From: Escherichia coli
GTDB taxonomy: Bacteria; Pseudomonadota; Gammaproteobacteria; Enterobacterales; Enterobacteriaceae
Assembly (NCBI RefSeq): GCF_024223415.1
Contig: NZ_CP100500.1
Reading direction: 5' to 3' (one strand)
Length of the DNA: 64,000 bases
Part shown: positions 46,362 through 59,195 of the stretch, in pieces
Position numbering within the stretch: position 1 is the stretch's first letter
Layout of the letters: each line of letters starts with the position of its first letter
The notes under the pieces: model-generated
Told to the model about the DNA's origin: nothing
Seen by the model: only the letters and a program-made list of their open reading frames with translations
Database searches by the model: none
Translations under genes and position numbers: made by a program

Positions 46362-47078
46362 ATGAAAAAGGCTAAAATACTTTCTGGCGTATTATTACTG
46401 TGCTTTTCGTCACCATTAATTTCTCAGGCTGCGACACTGGACGTACGTGGTGGATATCGTAGTGGAAGCCACGCCTATGAGACTCGACTCAAAGTCAGTG
46501 AGGGATGGCAAAATGGATGGTGGGCAAGTATGGAAAGTAATACCTGGAATACCATTCATGATAATAAAAAGGAAAATGCCGCACTCAATGATGTTCAGGT
46601 TGAAGTTAATTACGCGATTAAACTTGATGATCAATGGACGGTGCGCCCGGGAATGTTAACGCATTTTAGCAGCAACGGCACACGCTACGGACCCTACGTA
46701 AAACTGTCCTGGGACGCGACAAAAGATCTTAATTTTGGCATTCGCTATCGTTACGACTGGAAAGCTTACCGACAACAAGACTTATCCGGTGATATGTCTC
46801 GTGATAACGTTCATCGTTGGGATGGATATGTCACTTACCATATTAATAGTGATTTCACCTTCGCATGGCAAACGACGCTATACAGCAAACAGAACGATTA
46901 TCGCTATGCAAACCATAAGAAATGGGCGACGGAAAATGCATTTGTTCTACAATACCATATGACGCCCGATATTACGCCATACATAGAATATGACTACCTG
47001 GACCGTCAGGGTGTTTACAACGGCAGAGATAATTTATCGGAAAACAGTTATCGCATTGGTGTGTCATTTAAACTGTAG
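46362..47078 (+). CDS. nanC: N-acetylneuraminic acid outer-membrane channel NanC (KdgM family)
   Basis: ORF track 46353..47078; start MKKAKILSGVLLLCFSSPLISQA (46362) with signal peptide; 238 aa. Confidence 0.9.
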   Translation: MKKAKILSGVLLLCFSSPLISQAATLDVRGGYRSGSHAYETRLKVSEGWQNGWWASMESNTWNTIHDNKKENAALNDVQVEVNYAIKLDDQWTVRPGMLTHFSSNGTRYGPYVKLSWDATKDLNFGIRYRYDWKAYRQQDLSGDMSRDNVHRWDGYVTYHINSDFTFAWQTTLYSKQNDYRYANHKKWATENAFVLQYHMTPDITPYIEYDYLDRQGVYNGRDNLSENSYRIGVSFKL

Positions 47079-47097
47079 TAGACAGGAGACAGTCACA

Positions 47098-48204
47098 ATG
47101 AATAAAACAATAACGGCGCTTGCTATCATGATGGCTTCATTTGCCGCAAACGCGTCTGTATTACCGGAAACTCCTGTGCCATTTAAAAGTGGTACCGGAG
47201 CAATTGATAACGACACTGTCTACATTGGTTTAGGTAGCGCAGGTACGGCATGGTACAAGCTGGATACACAGGCCAAAGATAAAAAATGGACAGCGTTAGC
47301 TGCATTCCCTGGCGGACCAAGAGATCAAGCAACCTCTGCATTTATTGATGGCAATCTGTATGTGTTTGGCGGCATTGGCAAAAACAGCGAGGGCTTGACT
47401 CAGGTATTTAATGACGTACACAAATACAACCCCAAAACCAATAGCTGGGTTAAATTGATGTCGCACGCGCCGATGGGCATGGCGGGCCATGTGACTTTTG
47501 TACACAACGGCAAGGCTTATGTTACTGGCGGTGTTAACCAGAATATCTTCAATGGCTATTTTGAAGATCTCAACGAGGCTGGAAAAGATTCAACCGCTAT
47601 AGATAAAATCAACGCTCACTATTTTGACAAAAAAGCAGAAGATTATTTCTTCAATAAGTTTCTGTTGTCTTTTGATCCCTCAACACAGCAATGGAGTTAC
47701 GCTGGCGAATCTCCCTGGTACGGAACGGCTGGTGCGGCGGTTGTGAATAAAGGTGATAAAACCTGGCTTATTAATGGCGAAGCCAAACCAGGATTGCGAA
47801 CGGATGCCGTATTTGAACTTGATTTCACCGGCAATAATTTAAAATGGAATAAGCTTGCTCCCGTCTCATCACCAGATGGCGTCGCTGGCGGTTTTGCGGG
47901 GATAAGCAATGATTCTCTTATATTTGCCGGAGGGGCCGGATTCAAAGGTTCACGAGAAAATTACCAGAACGGTAAGAACTATGCGCATGAAGGCCTGAAA
48001 AAATCATATAGCACTGATATTCATCTTTGGCATAACGGGAAATGGGATAAATCGGGTGAATTATCGCAAGGTCGGGCCTACGGAGTATCATTGCCCTGGA
48101 ATAATAGTCTATTGATTATTGGCGGTGAAACTGCAGGCGGCAAAGCGGTGACGGATTCAGTTTTGATCTCTGTGAAGGATAATAAAGTCACAGTACAAAA
48201 CTAA
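47098..48204 (+). CDS. nanM: N-acetylneuraminate mutarotase NanM (Kelch beta-propeller)
   Basis: ORF track 46990..48204 overlaps nanC; ATG at 47098 (MNKTITALAIMMASFAANA, signal peptide) gives 368 aa. Confidence 0.9.
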   Translation: MNKTITALAIMMASFAANASVLPETPVPFKSGTGAIDNDTVYIGLGSAGTAWYKLDTQAKDKKWTALAAFPGGPRDQATSAFIDGNLYVFGGIGKNSEGLTQVFNDVHKYNPKTNSWVKLMSHAPMGMAGHVTFVHNGKAYVTGGVNQNIFNGYFEDLNEAGKDSTAIDKINAHYFDKKAEDYFFNKFLLSFDPSTQQWSYAGESPWYGTAGAAVVNKGDKTWLINGEAKPGLRTDAVFELDFTGNNLKWNKLAPVSSPDGVAGGFAGISNDSLIFAGGAGFKGSRENYQNGKNYAHEGLKKSYSTDIHLWHNGKWDKSGELSQGRAYGVSLPWNNSLLIIGGETAGGKAVTDSVLISVKDNKVTVQN

Positions 48205-48268
48205 CGCTTCAGGGCCCCAGTAAAGGGGCCCTGCTATCAATTTGTCATTTCAATTACGCGAAATTTAT

Positions 48269-49249
48269 ATGAACGCAATAATATCGCCTGATTATTACTA
48301 TGTTCTTACCGTTGCTGGTCAGTCTAATGCCATGGCGTATGGCGAAGGACTGCCATTACCGGACAGGGAAGATGCGCCTCATCCCAGAATTAAACAATTA
48401 GCGAGATTTGCGCATACGCATCCCGGAGGCCCGTCATGTCACTTTAACGACATTATTCCACTGACTCACTGCCCACACGATGTTCAGGATATGCAGGGTT
48501 ATCACCATCCTCTGGCAACGAATCATCAAACACAGTACGGCACCGTTGGCCAGGCACTGCATATTGCACGGAAATTACTGCCCTTTATTCCTGATAACGC
48601 AGGGGTTCTCATCGTTCCGTGTTGCCGTGGCGGATCGGCTTTTACCGCGGGCAGCGAAGGGACATATTCAGAACGGCACGGAGCCAGCCATGATGCTTGT
48701 CGTTGGGGAACGGATACTCCGCTATACCAGGATTTAGTCAGCAGAACGCGAGCCGCATTGGCAAAAAATCCGCAGAACAAATTCCTCGGCGTATGCTGGA
48801 TGCAAGGCGAATTTGACTTAATGACCAGTGACTACGCGTCACACCCTCAACACTTTAATCATATGGTTGAAGCCTTTCGTAGGGATCTAAAACAATACCA
48901 TTCTCAGCTTAATAATATTACTGATGCGCCCTGGTTTTGCGGCGATACCACCTGGTACTGGAAAGAAAATTTCCCTCATGCGTATGAAGCTATTTATGGC
49001 AATTACCAAAATAATGTTTTAGCCAATATTATTTTCGTCGACTTCCAGCAACAAGGTGAAAGAGGACTGACGAACGCGCCTGATGAAGACCCGGACGATT
49101 TAAGCACGGGATATTACGGTTCAGCGTACCGGTCACCGGAGAACTGGACGACGGCACTGAGAAGCAGCCATTTCAGCGCGGCAGCCCGTCGGGGGATTAT
49201 TTCTGACAGGTTTGTAGAAGCAATTTTGCAGTTTTGGCGCGAAAAGTGA
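48269..49249 (+). CDS. nanS: 9-O-acetyl-N-acetylneuraminate esterase NanS
   Basis: ORF track 48242..49249; start MNAIISPDYYYVLTVAGQSNA at 48269; about 326 aa. Confidence 0.85.
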   Translation: MNAIISPDYYYVLTVAGQSNAMAYGEGLPLPDREDAPHPRIKQLARFAHTHPGGPSCHFNDIIPLTHCPHDVQDMQGYHHPLATNHQTQYGTVGQALHIARKLLPFIPDNAGVLIVPCCRGGSAFTAGSEGTYSERHGASHDACRWGTDTPLYQDLVSRTRAALAKNPQNKFLGVCWMQGEFDLMTSDYASHPQHFNHMVEAFRRDLKQYHSQLNNITDAPWFCGDTTWYWKENFPHAYEAIYGNYQNNVLANIIFVDFQQQGERGLTNAPDEDPDDLSTGYYGSAYRSPENWTTALRSSHFSAAARRGIISDRFVEAILQFWREK

Positions 49250-49379
49250 GCGTTCATTAATTTGATTTATTCGCATCCATCAACGCTTTTAACTCCTCCG
49301 GCGTGCGGCACTATAACGACTTCCACAACAAGGAGCCATTTTCTTATACCACTTTCAGTGACCATCCGCTTATGCCACC

Positions 49380-49790
49380 ACCCTCTACGCAACTGTTTGC
49401 AGAGCACCTTCCCACCGAGTGGATACAGCACTTCCTGACGCTTTCTGCTCATGCGACCGTTCGTCGTCTTAACCTGAGCGTGGATGGCGAAGCGGGGATG
49501 AACCTGCTGGCGCCCGCAGCGCTGTCACCCAGGCGCGTCAGCGCGTGGGGGCCGCCCCGGTGGAATGGCTCTTCCGCCAGACCGCACAGACATGGGGCGC
49601 GGAACGTTACCTGAAGGATGACTGGCACGGCCTGCAACTTTTTGCCATTGATGGCGCACAGTTCAGGACACCTGATGAACCCGAGCTGCGTGAATATTAT
49701 GGCTCTGCCAACACATCCACTGAGCGGCAGAGCGCCTACCCCGTCATGCGTCTGGTGGCGTTAATGAATCTGGGAATCACATTCTACTGA
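49380..49790 (+). pseudogene. Remnant of an IS4-family transposase gene (N-terminal region, frameshifted and truncated)
   Basis: Two consecutive frames (49303..49614, 49545..49790) give ...TVRRLNL... and ...WHGLQLFAIDGAQFRTPDEPE...YPVMRLVALMNL, resembling the IS4 transposase N-terminal LTLLAIDGVFWRTPDTPE...YPQVKMVCQMEL region from memory; no intact ORF or terminal IRs seen. Confidence 0.45.
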
Positions 49791-50742
49791 ATGCCATGAC
49801 CGCGCCTACCAGCGGAGCGATACGGCGTGAGGCAACAAAAGCGGCGTCAGAGATCAGCTTTAAGTTCGCGTTCCAGTTTATCGTGACAGAAATGATAGTG
49901 CTGGGAAACACGGCGTCACCGGGGACTATCCCGAAACGACTGGAGCATCTGCGGGGGCTCTGGAAGTGGTGTTCATAACAAAACGCCCCCGACCATCAAG
50001 GGCGAGGGCGGTTAAGATATCAAAAACCCGTTATCCTGTGAAACACAGTGCCGCCCCGATTAAGTGAACGGCATTGTGTTTCTGAGGGACCTTAATTTTC
50101 CCTGATTCTCTGACGTTCCTTACCATTGATATTTCCTTCATTCCTCACCAGAGAAATAAAAAATCACTATACTCATCAAAATATGAGATTACCTTTATTC
50201 AGGTGATCACCTTACTATTTTTTACGGAAAATAAATTATGAATAACAAGAAATCACTGACAAACCACCTGTAAAATGTCAATCATTTTAGTTCAATTGCC
50301 TTTGTCATGATTATCTTTTTATCGTCCTGACGATACTATTAACAATTGCAATTTTTATACCCCTCCTGAACAAATAGAAAAGAACTAATATATTCGTTTA
50401 TAATTCTGGTAATCCTGGCATCATACGTTTAAAACTTAAGATATTTATTTTATCATCATCATGGTTCCAGAGACTATTGGTCAGCTGGAAATGCCAGCCT
50501 TTTCGTGCCAGCTATATTTGTCCAGTGTGTCACCCCATCCAAAAATCATCCACATCCTGACGTTACGTTAGATATAGAGAAAACAGGTTGTACTGTGCAA
50601 TATGCAAACCGCATAAGCGAATATAATTTCTAAGTTGATATTGTCTGGCTGTTGGGAGCTAAGCAATATAAATATCGCCAGTTGCCAGAACGGTTATATA
50701 GACCAGGAGCGTTTCGGCTCCTGGCCTGTTTTGGACATATTA

Positions 50743-52857
50743 TCAGTCAGCCACTAATAGCGGACTAGGGACACCAGATGATGAAACAAACAGCCCTTTT
50801 ACGGCACGGGTTGCAGCCACATGCAGTAACGCGCGCTCATTAAATAATGCATCACGCTGTTCAACGGGATCATCGGATGCTAATGCTTTTATTTCCGGCA
50901 CAACGCCTTCGTTAATCCCCACCAGGAACACATACTGGAACTCAAGCCCTTTAATACGGTGCATCGTTGCAACCCGCACGCCAGGGCGTGCATCGCTGTC
51001 ACCGCTATCATTGCCTAAATTAAATGTCTCAATTCCGGCGTCATTCAGTGCTGATGCGTAGCGGTCACAAGCATGTTTAGTACGCGCAGTAATGCAGATA
51101 TCCTGAGAACGAACCTGATTCGCCAGCAATGCCTGAATTTGCTTGACGAGCGTTGCAGCCTCTTCTTTGAAATCTGCCGCATGCGTAATCATGGGCTTTT
51201 CCCCGTGCAGTAATGACAAATAATCATTACTGGTATCCGCTTCGCCATCGAGGTTATCAACCTTCACACCAGTTAACAGCCCAACAGCAAATTGACGCGT
51301 CTCTTCTGTGGTCCGATAGTTAATCTTCAATTTTTTACTGCGACGACCACGGACGTTAATACCACACTGACCAAGAACGACCTTATTGCGATAAATACGC
51401 TGATGCCCATCCCCGACAATAAACAGATCGTTGGGCGACTCGGGAACCAGGCTGCGAATAAGAGTAAATGCCGGGGCACCGATATCTTGAGCTTCATCGA
51501 CCACAATACTGCTATAAGGTAGTTGGACCTGCTTTTCTTTAAACAGAACAATAGCCTCATGCATGGCATCGCCCATTTCGCGCAGTTTGGCACGCGCCAT
51601 TTGTGCTCTGAATTCTTCAAAGACTGGCCAGATTTTCGCCCGTTGAATACGGGATAACGCTGTACCACGTCCAACCCGGCTGACTTTGAGGTATTCCTCC
51701 CGGGTGTAAACCGCATTTGGCTGGACAACGCGTTGCCACTCTTCAGCATAGAAATTATCAGGTAGCCCCAGTTCGGCAGGTGCCTGCTGCAAGGCATAGT
51801 TCCAGCATTTGCGTCGCCCTTCATCGCTGTCGTATACCACGCGGAAATCATAACCGTGGCGTTTTAGTTGGTCGCTCATCCAGGCATCAATGTTAACGAC
51901 GTCAATACGCGCCATCTCTTCTCGCGTACACAACCGCTGGAGATTAGCGCGAATATCTGCCGCCAGGTTACGCGTAAAGGTCGTGAAAAGTACCTTCTTA
52001 CCGGGTTTATCTGCCAGACGCTGAGATAACCACCGCGCACGGTGCATCGCAACAACCGTTTTCCCTGTACCTGCACCGCCCAGTACTCGTACCGGACCAT
52101 TAGCGGGCGACTCCACCAGTTTTCGCTGGCTCGGATGCAGAAATACACGCCATTTTTCTAAAGGCGCATTAAGCATCTGCAACAGCTCCTGTTCATTTTC
52201 AACGACATGGAAGCGACGTTTACTTCGTTCAATCGCCTCCATAAAGTCGTTGGTATCAACAGGCTCATCACGATGATCGTTAAACTCTTCCAGCACTTCC
52301 TGGTAATCCAGCCCTTCTGCCAGCCAGTGCAGAGGTTCCCAGGCTTCTGCTGGCATTATGCTTTCAAGTTGGTTAAGCCCGGCTTCATCGGTAAGCGCCA
52401 TCACCTGATCAATAAAGACAGGCGGCACGCCCAGGGCCAGAATCTGTTCCGCGCTGTAAGCCGCGAAGAGTTTCGGTTTATCAACCACCGCTTCCGGTGC
52501 CGGTTTGATATAGCTAATATCAATAACCTGAATCGCGCCGGTAACTGGGTGAATCGAACAATCATGCCGCCGCGCCCAGTCGTATGCTTCGTCGTGTTTA
52601 TCCACCCACATCAGCATATACAGGGCACCCTGTTCAGGTTTCAGAACAATGCCGCGATAAGTTTGATCGATTCGCACCGAATGGACATTTTTACTGCGCG
52701 CATCGTGGATCTTTTCATAGTTAAGTCCATTACTGGTCGGGTCCTGACGGAATTTGGAGATGAATTCCTGCACCTTTTTTTGCTGTGCTTTTGGGATCCG
52801 CGCGAATGCGCCCAGAAAACCATCAGAAAGTGCCACCTTGGGCGTTTGCACCGTCAT
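50743..52857 (-). CDS. UvrD/Rep-like SF1 helicase (704 aa) with about 250-aa N-terminal domain of unknown function; third gene of candidate defence operon
   Basis: Walker A LGGAGTGKT (aa 259-267), Walker B/motif II VVDEAQD, C-terminal motif MHRIKGLEFQYVFLV typical of UvrD/PcrA family; ATG overlaps upstream gene stop (ATGA at 52854-52857). Confidence 0.85.
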   Translation of the reverse strand: MTVQTPKVALSDGFLGAFARIPKAQQKKVQEFISKFRQDPTSNGLNYEKIHDARSKNVHSVRIDQTYRGIVLKPEQGALYMLMWVDKHDEAYDWARRHDCSIHPVTGAIQVIDISYIKPAPEAVVDKPKLFAAYSAEQILALGVPPVFIDQVMALTDEAGLNQLESIMPAEAWEPLHWLAEGLDYQEVLEEFNDHRDEPVDTNDFMEAIERSKRRFHVVENEQELLQMLNAPLEKWRVFLHPSQRKLVESPANGPVRVLGGAGTGKTVVAMHRARWLSQRLADKPGKKVLFTTFTRNLAADIRANLQRLCTREEMARIDVVNIDAWMSDQLKRHGYDFRVVYDSDEGRRKCWNYALQQAPAELGLPDNFYAEEWQRVVQPNAVYTREEYLKVSRVGRGTALSRIQRAKIWPVFEEFRAQMARAKLREMGDAMHEAIVLFKEKQVQLPYSSIVVDEAQDIGAPAFTLIRSLVPESPNDLFIVGDGHQRIYRNKVVLGQCGINVRGRRSKKLKINYRTTEETRQFAVGLLTGVKVDNLDGEADTSNDYLSLLHGEKPMITHAADFKEEAATLVKQIQALLANQVRSQDICITARTKHACDRYASALNDAGIETFNLGNDSGDSDARPGVRVATMHRIKGLEFQYVFLVGINEGVVPEIKALASDDPVEQRDALFNERALLHVAATRAVKGLFVSSSGVPSPLLVAD

Positions 52858-55800
52858 TTGTCACCTCCGGACAGATGTTGCAATGTATTTTCGTCAATTG
52901 GCCCGAATGCAACGTGCCAACCTCTGGTTGTGAATAATGGAATAAATTCTTGATTATCAATAATCAATGCCCATTTTTGTGATGGCCAGGCGAGATCGGC
53001 TTCCGCAATAATTTCACCTTCATCATTTTGCAATTCGTAGCCGAGAGTCGGCGCAGAGAGAGAATGAGACTGAAGCAACGCGATCTCTTCAGCGCTTAAT
53101 AAGCCAAACTCAATAATCTCAGCCCAACTCTCATCAGTCTCTGGTACTGCCTCTGGCGTTGCCGAAACTTTAGTGTCAACGCTTTCCTGCGGTAAATGCA
53201 CGGCTTTACGGCTGGTAAAGGTCATATCCGGCAGGAACTGTAACAGGTTTACCAGTCGCCAGAAGCCATTGAGTCCCGCTTCATAACCGTCATCCTGCGT
53301 ATAGCGATCGTCAAAACAGATATGCAAACGCAGCCAGCTGCGCATTTGTGCGACGCTGGTCGTCGGTTTAATGGCTTGTTGTGGCAACACCGAAGCCAGC
53401 TCAATAAATTGCTGCGATGAGTTACAGCTATCGAGTAAACCACCAAAGACAAACGGTTCGTCTGGCAAAAGCTCTGCTAGCCGCCAGGCTGGCGCGTTTT
53501 CCTGCATTTCATAGGCATACTTTTGTTTCGTTCCCGCGTCCTGTGACTTCTTCACATCCAACCACACCCAGGCATGTGCAGCAGCCATTCTCTGCCATAA
53601 CTGCGTTCTTCCGCCCGGATCGGCGAGATAATCCAGCAGCAGTGCAAAACTGTTGCGTTCCCGGAACGACGCTTCAAGGGCCGCAAAGTTGGTATCGTGA
53701 AACAGGTTATAAAACTTAGGCTGTTTCATATCCGGGTTATGCCCAAGTCCCAGGACATCCTGAACATGTTTAAGCCCAGGCTCTTTGAGATCGGCCCACG
53801 TGACTGTCCACACCCAGAAATTACCGCTATCCCGAATCGCCTGGCGTTTTTGCACATCCTCTGCGACGCTATTTTTGTGGAACGCAAAGCCATCAAGGAA
53901 AATAGCCACCGGTTTAATGACATCAGACTGCATAAGCGGATATAGCACGTAATCCGGGCGACAAGGGATCCCCACCGCCTCTTTAGCGCCTAAATCCACC
54001 TGAGCTTTAAGATGCCAGCTCATCATCGGTTCGCTGCGGGTGTTAATAATCCACCCAGCGCCCTGATGCGCGTAACTGCGACTGACAATCAGGTTTTTAT
54101 TTTCTTGCAGGCAGCTAATAAACCGTTTTTCCAGCTCACTGCCCATCATGGCTTCGAGGGAAATGTTTTTGATGGAATCAATTACCCGTATCGAATCTCT
54201 TGCCTGCAAAATTTTCGCCAGCAAGAGACGCGCCTGATCGCGGGAGACATACTTCATGCGCCCACGGTCACGGTAAGCGTAAACGCAACGATAACAACCA
54301 TCTTTATGCGTATCATTGTTGCAACTGCATTCCACTATTGCCTGATAGGCCAGTTCAAGTAATTTCAGCAAATTGTCGGGAGTGCGCATCAGCTCTTTAA
54401 GAGAACCAGTTCCCCCCGGGACGGTATCGTAAATCACCAGATACTGCCTCCAGGATTCGCCTTCATTTTCCGGCTCGCGGTACACAACGCCTTTCAGGTG
54501 ATCGACATTCCCCTTGAAGTAATGTTTAAGGCCGAGCTGGATCGCCGCCCCAAGAGAAGCCTCCACGACACGGTCATTACTGTAACTGCTTACCGGGAGC
54601 AGAATACGCAACGCTTCTGACTCCAGCTGGCGATAGAGATAGAGATAATCTTCGAACTTCGCCTTTTCCGGTTCCGTGCGATATTTGCAGCTCAAATCAT
54701 GACGTGGTTCATGATCGCGAGGACGCTGCACCATGCCGCACCCGAGGCAAACTTTAAACCCGGTTCGCTTCTTCGCTTCTCCGGCAATCATCAACTCATT
54801 GGCATCATCCGCCATTTTGCCGAAGTTGATATCCCGCAGGGTGACTTTGCTTAAAAATTCAAAACCAAACGGAACTTCGCCTTCCTCAATCGCGTATGCC
54901 GCCGATACATCTTCTTTTTCGAAACTAACCAATAGCTGACGCTGGAAGAAAGCAGGTTCACGGCTGTCGCTATCGTCGCTGATCTGGCTATCACGTGCGC
55001 TGGCGCGGGCATAAACCTGGCGAAGTTTCAGCAGCGTGGTTTTTTGTCCGGCATCGGCCCACCCCGGTGTGCCACATTTCGGGCAATATTTATGCTGGTC
55101 GCCCGTCTGGTCGATATTTTCGCTGTAGTTACAGTGGCTACAGATACGCCAGTTCTCCGGCTCAGAGACCTTCAGGTCTATCTGCTCAATTTCAACTTTA
55201 TGCCCACCGGCATAGAAATTATTCAGCGGAGCCAGCTCAGCCAGCGCCGTTGATGCCGGGCGTTCATATTCGAAAGTGGTGTTTTGATATTCACGCGCTT
55301 CCCCGCCTTCTTTACGCCGCCAGAGCACAGAACGTAACGTAATACCGGCTTCCGGGAAGGCGTAGTTAGGCAGCAGACCTTCATCCGTGAGGAAATTCAG
55401 CGTTTGCTTATTGTTGATTTGATTGACCAGCGCCATCAGCGCCTGCCGTTCTGAAGTCAGTTCGCGCATATCGCTGTCAAAGTTTTGATCGCGCGGCGCG
55501 TTCTCCAGTTTATCGATGCTGCGCTTGAGTTTATCGATGCGTGAGCGCAAAGATTTGCGATCTTCCACCAGCAGTTTTAACGCTTCTTCGATACGCTGCA
55601 CCAGCGAACGTTGCCCTGGCGCGCCCTGAAGATAAGACAACAGCTGTTGGCGAGTTTCTGCGGCAAGATCGGGGAAGATCGCCGTAAATTGTGCAGCAAT
55701 CTCCGCATGATGCTGTTCGATATATCGCAGTAAGTTATACGGAAAACCCGATTTACGCCCGAACTCCAGCTCATCCAGCATCTGTTTGACGTTTTTACAG

Positions 55801-58800
55801 ATAGCGGATTCTGGTACACCGGTTTTCACCCAGTTATCCATACAAAAAGCTGCCAGCTGGCGTTCGAGAATAGCCGTTGCATTGAGGAAGACGCCAGGAG
55901 CCTGCACCTGGCCCTGCATCATCTCCAGCGGTTCTTCAAAGAAAAACTGATCGTGCGGGTTCCCTTCTGCCACGGTAATGTTTAACGCGTTACCATCTTT
56001 ACGACCGGCGCGACCAATACGCTGCAAGTAGTTGGCCTGAGCAGGTGGGACAGAACAGAGTAAAACGGTGGAAAGATCGCCAACGTCAATACCCATCTCC
56101 AGCGTCGGTGTTGCCGACAACAGGTTGATATTCCACGGTTGGTTGCCGCGGTAGAACGATTTTTCGGTGGCTTCGCGATCTTCACGGCTAAGCAGCCCCG
56201 TGTGTTCTGCGCCCTGTACGCGCGCGATGTCCATGTTCTCCCAACGCCAGGTCGCCGTATTGTCGACTTCCTGGTAACGACCTTCACAACGTAAAGAGAG
56301 ACAAGGCGCATTACGCCACTGCCAGCCTTGATCGGCCGGAGCCCGGACAACCTCACGGCAACATGAACAATTAAGCTGAACGACGTCACGGCTCACCACC
56401 AGCGCCGAAGGCACCAGTCCCCAGGCTTCACGCCCTTTGGTGTCAAAATCTTTTACTACTCCGGCTATTTTCAACGCCGTAAACAGGCGTCGTAACACTG
56501 TTTCCGCAACGCTACTGATAAACAGATTATTGCCGTTACTCAGCGTGCGATTGATCCAATGCTGATACCAACTGGGGTTAGACTTCGCGCCAATCAGGCG
56601 ATGGAAACCATTAATTTTTTCAAACGACGCATAAGCCGGTTTACGCGTTTTCGGACCGATAGAAGGCATATAGCGCGAGGTACGCTCTTTTTGCGTCATC
56701 ATAAAGGTCGTGCCATCACGGCGATAACTTTCGAACGCCGGATGCATAACGGCCCCGGCCTGGCGTTGATACCAGATAACCCCCAGCGCCAGGTGCGCGA
56801 CCTGCTCGACGCTCACACCGGACATCTCATCACCCAGCTCTTCACAAAGCTGTTGATGCAGGGCGGTAATTGCCGGATTAAAGCGTTCTTTATCCACTCC
56901 GGCAACGGCATAACCGGTGGCTTCCAGCGTACGTCCGATACGCGCGCGCAGGGTGAATTCGCTGTACACCTCCCAGTCGAGGCGCAGGGAAACCAGCTCC
57001 GGCAGATCGGAGTTCTCCGCCAGTTTGCCTTCATTTTTCAGCATCTGATAATCATTCAGCCACTGCATATTTGGTGCGATGAAGTTCGCTGCAAAATGAG
57101 CATCGTCCGGTGAACGTTCACGCGTTTGTTGGCAAACACGCGCCGCGAACGCATCCAGCGGTAATGTCTCTTTTTCGCCAAGAACACTGGCGATTTGCCC
57201 ACGAATCATCAGCGGCCAGGTACGGGCAGTAAAGAAGCTGGCACGATGCGCGGCGTCTTGTACCGAGTCAGAAAACGTAATCAGCTTTTTATGTTCGTTG
57301 AACTGGCTGCCATAAAGCTGGTGAATCATCACCGCCGACAAACTGGCAGCCCGTGACCCCAGGATCGAAATCCCCTGTTTGCTGTTGCAGTACGGGCATT
57401 CATTAGCAAACTCCAGCTCGTCCTTACGCTCTTTGAGCATATCCGGGATCAGTACCTGCAACAGTTCCGTATGACCGCAATGTCCACACTGGACGCTGGA
57501 CTGTCGGTTCAGTTTCAGACAGGTAGGACACAGTTTCTGGTGTGCGCCACTGACCGCTTTTTCGTTGTTATCCGGGAAAGCAAGGACGATGGAGCGTCCT
57601 TTTTCAAAGAACTGGCGATAAATGCCGTCGAGGTCTGTTTCCAGCTGAACGCTTTGCCCATGACGCAGGCTGGCCCAGCCAGTTGCGTGGCAGTCACGGC
57701 AGTGGATAACCGGCAAATAGTGTTCGCGATCTTCCACCGCCACATCATCGGCAAACACCAGTCGGGGCGTTTTCGCCACGCTGGCGACCAGACGACGCAT
57801 CTCACGAAGCCACAACTGGGAGCGCAGTTGCACAAACGGCAGCACCGGACGCGCTTTCTTCGCCTGGAGACGTTTTTGCCGATCGTGTTCCGTTTCCGGT
57901 ACTTCGAGACGTGCCTGTGCGATCAGCGCCAGAATGCTTTGCAGCACGCGTCGGGCATGGTCGGCGCTTTCTGCCAGCATGACCTGGAGATTTTCCAGAC
58001 ACTCTCGTTCAGAGAGGATCCCGCCTTGCAGATCATGGAGTAAGACATGCATCACGCTGTGGCGGCGTAACAGTGACCCCAGCGCAATACGCTTTTCACG
58101 CCCGTCGTCGCTCTCCAGATCGTCCGGGAGTTGCAAGTCGCTGTCGGGGAACCACAAAGGGATTTGCCCGTTAAGATACGCTACCGGGGTAGCGTAACTC
58201 TGCGGGTCCAGGGCCGAAGCGACCTCCGGCCCCGGATACTGACTGTACGCAATGGCGTAATCCTGCAAGTACTCCGCTGCCGTGTAGCGATCTTCGCGAA
58301 TAACGGCGTCATCGGTAAACGGCTGGTCAAAGATTGTTTTTGCGTAATCGAGCAGTTGCCCCAGCTCGTCGCCGACGGTAGCTGATGTCCCGACGCAGGC
58401 GAATCGTTGGTTATCTACACCTATGTGATGCTTCAGACGTCGCACCAGACAGGCCAGATCCGACCCTTGCGCGCCATCAAACGTATGCAATTCATCCACG
58501 ACCAGGTAACGCAATGAACCGGGCTGGTTGTAACGCCAGAGCGGCTGATCGCCAGGGCGCATCAGCAGGTAGTCGAGCATTTTGTAGTTGGTCAACAGGA
58601 TGTCCGGCGGGCTTTCGCGCAGCGTGTGCTTGCAGGTAATGACCTTTTCTGCCGACATTTTTTTGCTGGGTTCGATTTCGCTGTCGCCGACAAACAGGCC
58701 GACGGTCACCTTGCCATGCAGTTGTGTATCGCTGGCGATGGTTTTGGCGAAACGGCTGGCCTGATCGGTTGCCAGGGCGTTCATCGGGTAGATGATAATC

Positions 58801-59195
58801 GCTTTAACCCCGGCTTGTGACGCGCCCGCGCAGTGGTTGAGCAGCGGGAACATAAAGCATTCTGTTTTACCGGAGCCGGTACCGGTAGCAACCAGCGTCG
58901 GCTGTGGCGCGTCGCTTCCCAGACGCTGAAATGCCCGGGCCTGATGCGCGTGCGGCGGGAACGGCAGCGTCAGATTAGGGAAGAAATTCAGCGGTAAGTC
59001 ACTTTTACGAAACGGCAACTGGGCGGAAAGGTATGGTCCTTTCAGCAGCGTTTCGGGCTGGGCCAGAAATTGCTCCAGCATTGAGACATTATCGTTATTC
59101 TCACCGTTAAACAGCGGACTGTTTAGCGGGAACGCCGCCCGTAAAAAGGCGGCAACGCTGTCGGCGACCTGCCGACTGACAACGGATGGCAGCAT
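52854..59195 (-). CDS. Giant multidomain SF2 (DExH, Lhr-like) helicase, 2113 aa, with zinc-ribbon/Cys clusters (DUF1998-like) and C-terminal Vsr/DUF559-like endonuclease motif; second gene of candidate defence operon
   Basis: Motif I ATGTGSGKT (58863-58883), Ia YPMNALATDQ, II VVDELH (58485-58496), V LEMGIDVGD and VI QRIGRAGR about 800 aa later; Cys clusters CSHCN...CPKCG and CSC...DGCYRC; FLDGFAFH...RQAIRDSG near aa 1740-1800 (about 53796-53978); start codon overlaps stop of upstream gene. Confidence 0.85.
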   Translation of the reverse strand: MLPSVVSRQVADSVAAFLRAAFPLNSPLFNGENNDNVSMLEQFLAQPETLLKGPYLSAQLPFRKSDLPLNFFPNLTLPFPPHAHQARAFQRLGSDAPQPTLVATGTGSGKTECFMFPLLNHCAGASQAGVKAIIIYPMNALATDQASRFAKTIASDTQLHGKVTVGLFVGDSEIEPSKKMSAEKVITCKHTLRESPPDILLTNYKMLDYLLMRPGDQPLWRYNQPGSLRYLVVDELHTFDGAQGSDLACLVRRLKHHIGVDNQRFACVGTSATVGDELGQLLDYAKTIFDQPFTDDAVIREDRYTAAEYLQDYAIAYSQYPGPEVASALDPQSYATPVAYLNGQIPLWFPDSDLQLPDDLESDDGREKRIALGSLLRRHSVMHVLLHDLQGGILSERECLENLQVMLAESADHARRVLQSILALIAQARLEVPETEHDRQKRLQAKKARPVLPFVQLRSQLWLREMRRLVASVAKTPRLVFADDVAVEDREHYLPVIHCRDCHATGWASLRHGQSVQLETDLDGIYRQFFEKGRSIVLAFPDNNEKAVSGAHQKLCPTCLKLNRQSSVQCGHCGHTELLQVLIPDMLKERKDELEFANECPYCNSKQGISILGSRAASLSAVMIHQLYGSQFNEHKKLITFSDSVQDAAHRASFFTARTWPLMIRGQIASVLGEKETLPLDAFAARVCQQTRERSPDDAHFAANFIAPNMQWLNDYQMLKNEGKLAENSDLPELVSLRLDWEVYSEFTLRARIGRTLEATGYAVAGVDKERFNPAITALHQQLCEELGDEMSGVSVEQVAHLALGVIWYQRQAGAVMHPAFESYRRDGTTFMMTQKERTSRYMPSIGPKTRKPAYASFEKINGFHRLIGAKSNPSWYQHWINRTLSNGNNLFISSVAETVLRRLFTALKIAGVVKDFDTKGREAWGLVPSALVVSRDVVQLNCSCCREVVRAPADQGWQWRNAPCLSLRCEGRYQEVDNTATWRWENMDIARVQGAEHTGLLSREDREATEKSFYRGNQPWNINLLSATPTLEMGIDVGDLSTVLLCSVPPAQANYLQRIGRAGRKDGNALNITVAEGNPHDQFFFEEPLEMMQGQVQAPGVFLNATAILERQLAAFCMDNWVKTGVPESAICKNVKQMLDELEFGRKSGFPYNLLRYIEQHHAEIAAQFTAIFPDLAAETRQQLLSYLQGAPGQRSLVQRIEEALKLLVEDRKSLRSRIDKLKRSIDKLENAPRDQNFDSDMRELTSERQALMALVNQINNKQTLNFLTDEGLLPNYAFPEAGITLRSVLWRRKEGGEAREYQNTTFEYERPASTALAELAPLNNFYAGGHKVEIEQIDLKVSEPENWRICSHCNYSENIDQTGDQHKYCPKCGTPGWADAGQKTTLLKLRQVYARASARDSQISDDSDSREPAFFQRQLLVSFEKEDVSAAYAIEEGEVPFGFEFLSKVTLRDINFGKMADDANELMIAGEAKKRTGFKVCLGCGMVQRPRDHEPRHDLSCKYRTEPEKAKFEDYLYLYRQLESEALRILLPVSSYSNDRVVEASLGAAIQLGLKHYFKGNVDHLKGVVYREPENEGESWRQYLVIYDTVPGGTGSLKELMRTPDNLLKLLELAYQAIVECSCNNDTHKDGCYRCVYAYRDRGRMKYVSRDQARLLLAKILQARDSIRVIDSIKNISLEAMMGSELEKRFISCLQENKNLIVSRSYAHQGAGWIINTRSEPMMSWHLKAQVDLGAKEAVGIPCRPDYVLYPLMQSDVIKPVAIFLDGFAFHKNSVAEDVQKRQAIRDSGNFWVWTVTWADLKEPGLKHVQDVLGLGHNPDMKQPKFYNLFHDTNFAALEASFRERNSFALLLDYLADPGGRTQLWQRMAAAHAWVWLDVKKSQDAGTKQKYAYEMQENAPAWRLAELLPDEPFVFGGLLDSCNSSQQFIELASVLPQQAIKPTTSVAQMRSWLRLHICFDDRYTQDDGYEAGLNGFWRLVNLLQFLPDMTFTSRKAVHLPQESVDTKVSATPEAVPETDESWAEIIEFGLLSAEEIALLQSHSLSAPTLGYELQNDEGEIIAEADLAWPSQKWALIIDNQEFIPLFTTRGWHVAFGPIDENTLQHLSGGDK

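Follow-up and report, generated by a model that had tools for sequence, protein, structure and literature searches.

A probable non-functional, multi-layer recombination scar at the nanS-side edge of the O-island 172 defence module in Escherichia coli O157:H7

In Escherichia coli O157:H7 the conserved nan genes give way to an accessory operon across an interval occupying positions 49250–50742 of the window, the stretch of 64,000 nucleotides analysed as a whole, which raises the questions of what this DNA consists of, whether any of it is functional and how it came to lie there. We consider it very probable that the interval is a non-functional, multi-layer recombination scar at the nanS-side junction of an anti-phage module of about 31.5 kb.

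Position of the interval at the edge of OI-172

The source of the window is E. coli O157:H7, and region 49250–50742 is 100% identical to strain Sakai, to which coordinates were converted as Sakai position = 5440898 − window position. The spacer at 50077–50742 (Sakai 5390156–5390821) is 100% identical in many O157:H7 genomes, including an EDL933 assembly and TW14359, and 50238–50760, comprising the right part of the spacer and the 3' end of armD, matches the Sakai record with 100% identity. The features of the region are as follows; comparison loci are given with an L number.

47078–49304, plus strand: intact right-hand copy of a duplicated segment (nanC stop, nanM, nanS, HNH relic), with second copies left of zorE
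48269–49249, plus strand: intact nanS (sialate O-acetylesterase), the final core gene ahead of the junction, from its open reading frame (ORF)
49250–49304, minus strand: 55-bp nanS 3' flank, from alignment with L011 and L012 and the intact gene in L023
49305–50076, plus strand: ISCro3-like IS4-family remnant (IS positions 42–1430, gapped), from block alignment to L005 1460–2889, Pfam and the Sakai annotation
50059–50076, plus strand: intact right terminal inverted repeat of the IS, ATTAAGTGAACGGCATTG, matching the full-length copy and K-12 insZ
50077–50237, plus strand: upstream region (161 bp, GC 32%) apparently orphaned by loss of a gene with the uracil-DNA glycosylase (UDG) fold, collinear with L003 8813–8972, which lies directly 5' of a 651-bp ORF
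50238–50244, plus strand: start codon ATGAATA and apparent deletion scar of this 216-aa UDG-superfamily gene, from comparison with L003
50245–50742, no strand assigned: AT-rich (GC 37%) intergenic DNA of about 500 bp 3' of armD, travelling with the ARMADA II operon
50703–50724, no strand assigned: GC-rich hairpin with an 8-bp stem (6 G-C), from a pattern scan and folding of both strands
50743–52857, minus strand: armD (z5902/ECs_5264), a 704-aa UvrD/GajB-like helicase gene and the final ARMADA II gene, from Pfam, PADLOC, the Sakai annotation and the published system
52854–59195, minus strand: armC (ECs_5263), encoding a 2113-aa DEAD/DUF1998 helicase, from Pfam, PADLOC and Sakai mapping
Minus strand: armB (ECs_5262), a large methyltransferase-like gene, from domain matches and Sakai mapping

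ARMADA II is defined by armA–armD with a YprA-type helicase, a PglX-like methyltransferase and a UvrD/GajB-like helicase; domain matches were found for the three genes inside the window, and armA lies outside it. This system (z5899–z5902) of EDL933, located on O-island 172 (OI-172), has been described and tested in published work, and the island was earlier named the 'MAO island' in the literature. The PADLOC call of DruE for the 2113-aa protein was rejected, since the literature identifies it as ArmC of ARMADA II and the true DruE is encoded upstream, outside the window.

On the other side, nanC, nanM and nanS lie on the plus strand and reach 49249, the stop of nanS. The nan region is 98.7% identical to that of K-12, and the homology finishes at 49252. 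K-12 yjhR was considered as a remnant of the same helicase and rejected, because there is no DNA homology past this position. In the Sakai record the feature 'phage-like element SpLE6' terminates 3 bp from the nanS stop; the interval is the nanS-side edge of OI-172/SpLE6, beside armD, and existing annotation already has this island finish here.

The interval had been proposed, from its sequence and ORFs, to mark a junction between the nan genes and a horizontally acquired or rearranged accessory operon, and this main reading is supported. K-12 homology stops at the junction, and other strains carry different defence genes there. Positions 49245–49304 are common to 2948 of 5426 complete E. coli genomes, just 446 of which go on into the IS remnant and the spacer. 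The two observations that would have refuted the reading, a fragment unlike any transposase and a junction sequence identical in all E. coli, were thus not made. Composition changes as well: a GC-rich block (55–61%) at about 49250–49990 is followed by a trough down to 28%, and the GC content is 56.5% for the IS remnant (772 bp) and 35.6% for the spacer (50077–50742, 666 bp), compared with 48.5% for the whole window (1–64000). An AT-rich, gene-free spacer of roughly 750 bp had been proposed. Such a spacer is present before the armD stop at 50743, and its length is 666 bp; the start placed at 49980 lies about 100 bp too far to the left, so that 49980–50740 takes in the last 97 bp of the IS.

Two observations concern nanS itself. 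In several complete genomes (L001, L003, L007 and L011), RefSeq/PGAP treats it as a partial pseudogene ('missing C-terminus'). In these loci it is 98–99% identical to the intact 326-codon ORF of the window; the call looks like an annotation artefact, perhaps linked to an overlapping call of the small protein YthB. On the minus strand, opposite the 3' end of nanS, lies a 47-aa ORF (49114–49257) whose start is a short way past the nanS stop. K-12 has YthB annotated at the equivalent place, and related loci have a 29-aa product matching Pfam YthB (PF23516). Since the start of the 47-aa ORF falls in the variable junction, its N-terminus varies by junction type.

Anatomy of the junction

The first component is the nanS 3' flank. 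On the minus strand, 49257–49304 is what remains of a truncated HNH endonuclease gene, namely its last 15 codons and the stop (TPEELKALMDANKSN*); strain M160133 has this gene intact, encoding 216 aa. In the 2948 genomes sharing this flank, the minus-strand HNH endonuclease (pseudo)gene comes next, and past it lie other genes of defence, for example those for a phosphorothioate-sensing restriction enzyme, McrBC or a type I restriction-modification system. In the window, the HNH sequence passes into the IS at 49304/49305, the T at 49304 being ambiguous. The IS begins at 49305, immediately after this HNH remnant; a deletion therefore joined internal IS sequence to internal HNH sequence.

The IS remnant comprises 773 aligned bases (49304–50076, including the junction T common to the flank) of a 1430-bp element and shows 91–95% DNA identity to full-length copies on E. 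coli F-type plasmids, annotated as IS4 family, a similarity well above what chance would give. The name ISCro3 is based on this identity and on the label in Sakai, where RefSeq annotates 49837–50075 as 'ISCro3 Family: IS4 partial' and 49545–49790 as the hypothetical protein ECs_5266. The sequence-only reading had recognised an IS4-family fragment at 49380–49790; the assignment was correct, and the true extent (49305–50076) is nearly double, only the middle having been caught. A full-length copy (L005) has 1430 bp, 18-bp inverted repeats CAATGCCGATCAGTTAAG ... CTTAAGTGAACGGCATTG and an 11-bp target duplication CCCGCTTCGCG, and encodes a 445-aa transposase with Nterm_IS4 (PF13006, 109 bits) and DDE_Tnp_1 (PF01609) domains. 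Similarity to the transposase is also seen at the domain level, since the fragment translated from 49491–49775 matches Nterm_IS4 with 27.1 bits, above the Pfam cut-off of 25; the fragment from 49375–49614 gives 17.1 bits, under this cut-off, and the Pfam search found no match to the DDE domain PF01609 in any remnant fragment.

Block alignment against L005 revealed deletions of 41 bp at the left, including the left inverted repeat, and then of 19, 87, 488 and 21 bp. The 488-bp deletion (IS positions 663–1150, residues ~195–355) takes out the bulk of the DDE domain; the part holding the second aspartate and the glutamate is gone, and of the DDE core only the region of the first aspartate remains. 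The reading frame is disrupted by one 2-nt insertion (+2) and three 1-nt deletions (−1); accordingly, tblastn matches of the transposase fall in three frames, with residues ~190–356 missing. At the other end, homology to the plasmid copies ends exactly at 50076, the last base of the intact right inverted repeat. The right flank TGTTTCTGAGG has no partner as a direct target duplication, for which 10–13 bp would be expected, and none is possible, because the left end is deleted; this missing end was sought at the other junction of the module and was not found there. With the left inverted repeat missing and the catalytic core and frame broken, the remnant would neither encode a transposase nor be mobilisable in trans, and judged by its sequence it is dead and immobile.

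The closest chromosomal counterpart is the IS4-like pseudogene between adhE and tdk in K-12 (L002 2892–3883), which we take to be insZ. It shows about 93% DNA identity to the remnant and has an identical right inverted repeat. However, insZ retains both inverted repeats and a target duplication of about 10 bp (CCCTTCTGGG) and has one 409-bp deletion, whereas in the O157 remnant the left end is gone and the deletions are different ones and more numerous. Some part of the query was matched in 3821 genomes, most of which appear to be accounted for by the insZ copy, pointing to an old, fixed insertion. An apparent continuation of insZ homology past 50076 to 50099 was rejected, being a weak match that runs on by chance between unrelated flanks. 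Positions 50035–50053 and 50069–50087 form an inverted repeat of 19 nt (84% complementary) that straddles the right terminus of the IS, coupling IS-internal with flanking target DNA; it was not seen in the plasmid or insZ copies and is probably coincidental.

To the right of the IS, the spacer matches about 150 other genomes as two pieces with 93–94% identity, between which lies the 651-bp ORF, annotated in NCBI as 'hypothetical protein' or 'uracil-DNA glycosylase family protein', with the protein accessions WP_001026378.1 and WP_001586621.1. The gene is intact at this locus in L003, L007 and L014–L021, and the gene-less allele belongs to the O157/O55/O145 lineage. Cutting L003 8981–9641 (661 bp, between AATCATGAATA and AATCATTAATA), a segment bounded by direct repeats of 11 nt, regenerates the window sequence, in which only 7 nt of the gene survive. 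From these sequence comparisons, the left part of the spacer is best read as a gene-deletion scar. In one further locus (L017, 6001–7311 and 9914 onward), nanS, the IS remnant, the UDG-like gene and the spacer are kept, only 147 bp of armD are left, and Pap-type fimbrial genes come after the armD stub; ARMADA II can thus be lost while the junction remains.

The encoded protein scores 18.1 bits against the Pfam UDG family, below the cut-off of 24.3, and has no PADLOC or NCBIfam match and no significant PDB sequence match (best E-value 0.18); its homologues in Muribaculaceae and Clostridia, 40–48% identical, carry PF03167. The fold search alone was informative. An AlphaFold2 model of the intact L003 allele (pLDDT 89.4) matched family 4/5 UDG, UdgX and TDG in Foldseek, with E-values of 7e-6 to 1e-3 and TM-scores of about 0.5–0.68. 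According to the model, the product of the lost gene has the UDG alpha/beta fold. It is possible, though rather doubtful, that this 216-aa protein is an anti-phage DNA glycosylase of the Brig type; the OI-172-type defence island of about 150 non-O157 E. coli genomes would then have it as a fourth, accessory component. The sole support for a defence role is the UDG fold and the neighbourhood in E. coli: Brig1 and Brig2 are defence glycosylases of the UDG superfamily, and AT-rich DNA beside defence systems, the setting of the lost gene, is the context reported for Brig2-like genes. However, the lost gene has no PADLOC match and a Pfam UDG score under the cut-off; no Brig1 entry occurs among the best 50 of 51 PDB matches of the model (Foldseek, E ≤ 0.001), and the genome context of one homologue (Muribaculaceae/Duncaniella-type) contains detoxification-type cargo genes, not defence genes.

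The remaining DNA, 50245–50742, accompanies armD wherever the operon is found, including tRNA-Phe islands, and IS1 cuts there at varying points. The hairpin at 50703–50724 begins 18 nt past the armD stop and is followed on the plus strand by CCTGTTTTGG; on the minus strand, which is the sense strand of armD, the tail UCUAUAUAACC is weakly U-rich. The arrangement of a GC-rich stem-loop and a subsequent T run corresponds to an intrinsic terminator, and the stem is kept in 7 of 8 variants. A terminator had been suggested for the spacer; a terminator-like hairpin is present, and its sequence indicates that it probably acts as a terminator between convergent genes, making it the one spacer element that we rate as probably functional. 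A 49-bp segment including the hairpin (50693–50741) has about 92% identity to short segments of many plasmids from E. coli, Klebsiella and Enterobacter, some of them annotated beside a terminase gene, and may be a shared terminator motif.

The duplicated nan segment

The defence module extends for about 31.5 kb from zorE to the IS remnant and contains Zorya II and Druantia III together with ARMADA II. It is bracketed by direct copies of the 2.2-kb segment 47078–49304, of which the left one has diverged to 79–95% identity. In Sakai and ATCC 8739, the DNA left of zorE is a decayed nan copy consisting of 245 bp and 36 bp of nanM and ending at the nanC stop; the nanM'–zorE junction is the same in both strains, and this left junction was found in 555 genomes. 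The left copy in Sakai directly abuts the restriction-enzyme gene that adjoins nanS in other strains. In M160133 the left copy is less eroded, with the full HNH gene, a 130-bp 3' end of nanS and 517 bp of nanM.

The duplication also bears on an existing annotation. ECs_5255, labelled 'N-acetylneuraminate epimerase' (L022 2973–3336, Sakai 5359772–5360135, outside the window), is the decayed nanM duplicate. One of its sides is fused to the upstream flank of the restriction-endonuclease gene and the other abuts the zorE 3' flank. The 31.5-kb defence module has its opposite end at this duplicate.

Divergence, alternative readings and origin

Constraint was assessed from the divergence between the O157 allele and a B2-type allele. 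Whole-gene divergence of nanS, armD and armC is 1.3–1.5%, and that at their four-fold degenerate sites is 2.9–5.0%, compared with 6–8% in the 55-bp flank, the IS remnant and both spacer parts. The interval thus diverges at or above the neutral rate and is under no overall purifying selection. The right part of the spacer is uneven, with about 12% divergence in 50238–50487 versus about 3% in 50488–50742; this fourfold contrast may reflect a recombination breakpoint near 50490 or a local mutational bias. Promoter-like hexamer pairs number 11, versus 2.8 ± 1.8 expected, an enrichment that is to be expected of AT-rich DNA; by sequence, the DNA may be transcribed. No protein families were found for the ORFs of 50245–50742, and Rfam 15 covariance models yielded no match at threshold in the interval, the best score being 22 bits versus 43 and all E-values at least 0.89. 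Permissive Rfam matches were dismissed as sub-threshold noise of eukaryotic snoRNA and miRNA models, with Spot 42 reaching 17 bits against a threshold of 80, and Esr41/EcOnc14, a small RNA (sRNA) of an EHEC island, was rejected because it is located in SpLE1/OI-43. The suggestion that the spacer hides an sRNA is therefore unsupported, there being neither an Rfam match nor overall constraint.

A narrower version of this suggestion is that the armD-proximal half of the spacer, approximately 50488–50742, holds a small functional element: an sRNA, an RNA derived from the armD 3' untranslated region, or a 42-aa ORF at 50505–50633. The lower divergence of this half relative to the adjoining 250 bp would agree with such an element, as would its constant association with armD, the fold z-scores against shuffled sequences (−1.8 for the plus and −2.3 for the minus strand) and the fact that all three substitutions in the 42-aa ORF are synonymous. 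However, 3% falls within the neutral range of the four-fold sites of armD and armC (4–5%), and IS1 insertions delete parts of this region in some ARMADA-bearing strains. The 42-aa ORF lacks both a conserved start codon and a recognisable ribosome-binding site, amino-acid replacements abound in its N-terminal extension, and its homologues among 5.8 billion proteins are only two near-identical E. coli fragments; the lack of Rfam matches in the spacer points the same way. We regard a functional element here as quite improbable. Scarcely more credit can be given to the proposal that the UDG-fold gene was inserted in non-O157 lineages and that the window preserves the ancestral empty state. The indel is bounded by short repeats, which by themselves give no direction, but the window retains the exact upstream region of the gene with its ATGAATA start, and the 3' end of the gene is linked to ARMADA II elsewhere too, since one unrelated tRNA-Phe island still has the last 165 bp of the UDG-like gene beside ARMADA. 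A deletion mediated by the repeats is more parsimonious than a precise insertion of ORF size that would generate a start codon for itself out of sequence already present, and on these grounds of parsimony we infer a deletion at this locus.

The least likely of the alternatives concerns the junction as a whole, which might be where the leuX island ends at an integrase/att site, or else a fresh end of IS4-type transposition with a target duplication. The SpLE6 feature does end beside nanS, and the island lies downstream of leuX and has integrases. Nevertheless, the 26-nt repeat of the leuX 3' end is present at the SpLE5|SpLE6 boundary, and in 48901–51000 the longest match to it is 7 nt, which is chance level. 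An IS without its left end provides no junction or duplication of the transposition type, and the module is bracketed instead by the diverged nan copies, leaving this possibility with almost no credibility.

The preferred reading, a multi-layer recombination scar, accommodates the anatomy, breakpoints, genome distribution and neutral-or-faster divergence described above. Its first layer would be the ancestral flank of nanS (55 bp), which holds the 15 terminal codons of the truncated HNH gene, and its second the ISCro3-like element, dead, immobile and broken in frame. The third would comprise the promoter-side flank and ATG of the UDG-fold gene, left by a 661-bp deletion between the 11-nt direct repeats, and the fourth about 500 bp of AT-rich armD 3' flank, in which the terminal hairpin probably stops convergent transcription. 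The module could have arrived together with a flanking nan segment through a single homologous (Campbell-type) crossover, an entry that we infer and that would have produced the 2.2-kb nan duplication, one copy of which would subsequently have decayed.

The feature is real, ordinary and already largely explained: most of what it comprises is known, from the island and where it ends beside nanS to the partial IS and the adjacent defence system. Published texts on OI-172 treat its genes, whereas the present work concerns the junction. In the 2025 OI-172 preprint, the main text does not mention nanS, the word 'transposase' does not occur in the 2013 OI-172 paper, and neither 'glycosylase' nor 'UDG' occurs in the ARMADA paper. 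The OI-172 and ARMADA papers leave undescribed the detailed structure of the IS remnant, the relic of the HNH gene, the 661 bp lost with the UDG-fold gene and the nan duplication, which represent useful, not surprising, additions.

These data fix the precise limits of the OI-172 defence module in the EHEC genomes studied most, although their practical value is limited. The annotated SpLE6 edge would be a recombination scar and not an att site, and the seemingly empty AT-rich gap could be explained as a lost gene. Where ARMADA II is cloned or deleted 'with native flanks', the O157 flank would be one without the UDG-fold gene that other lineages have kept. Finally, the decayed nan duplication hints that homologous recombination can carry large defence blocks, along with flanking core DNA, from one E. 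coli lineage to another.
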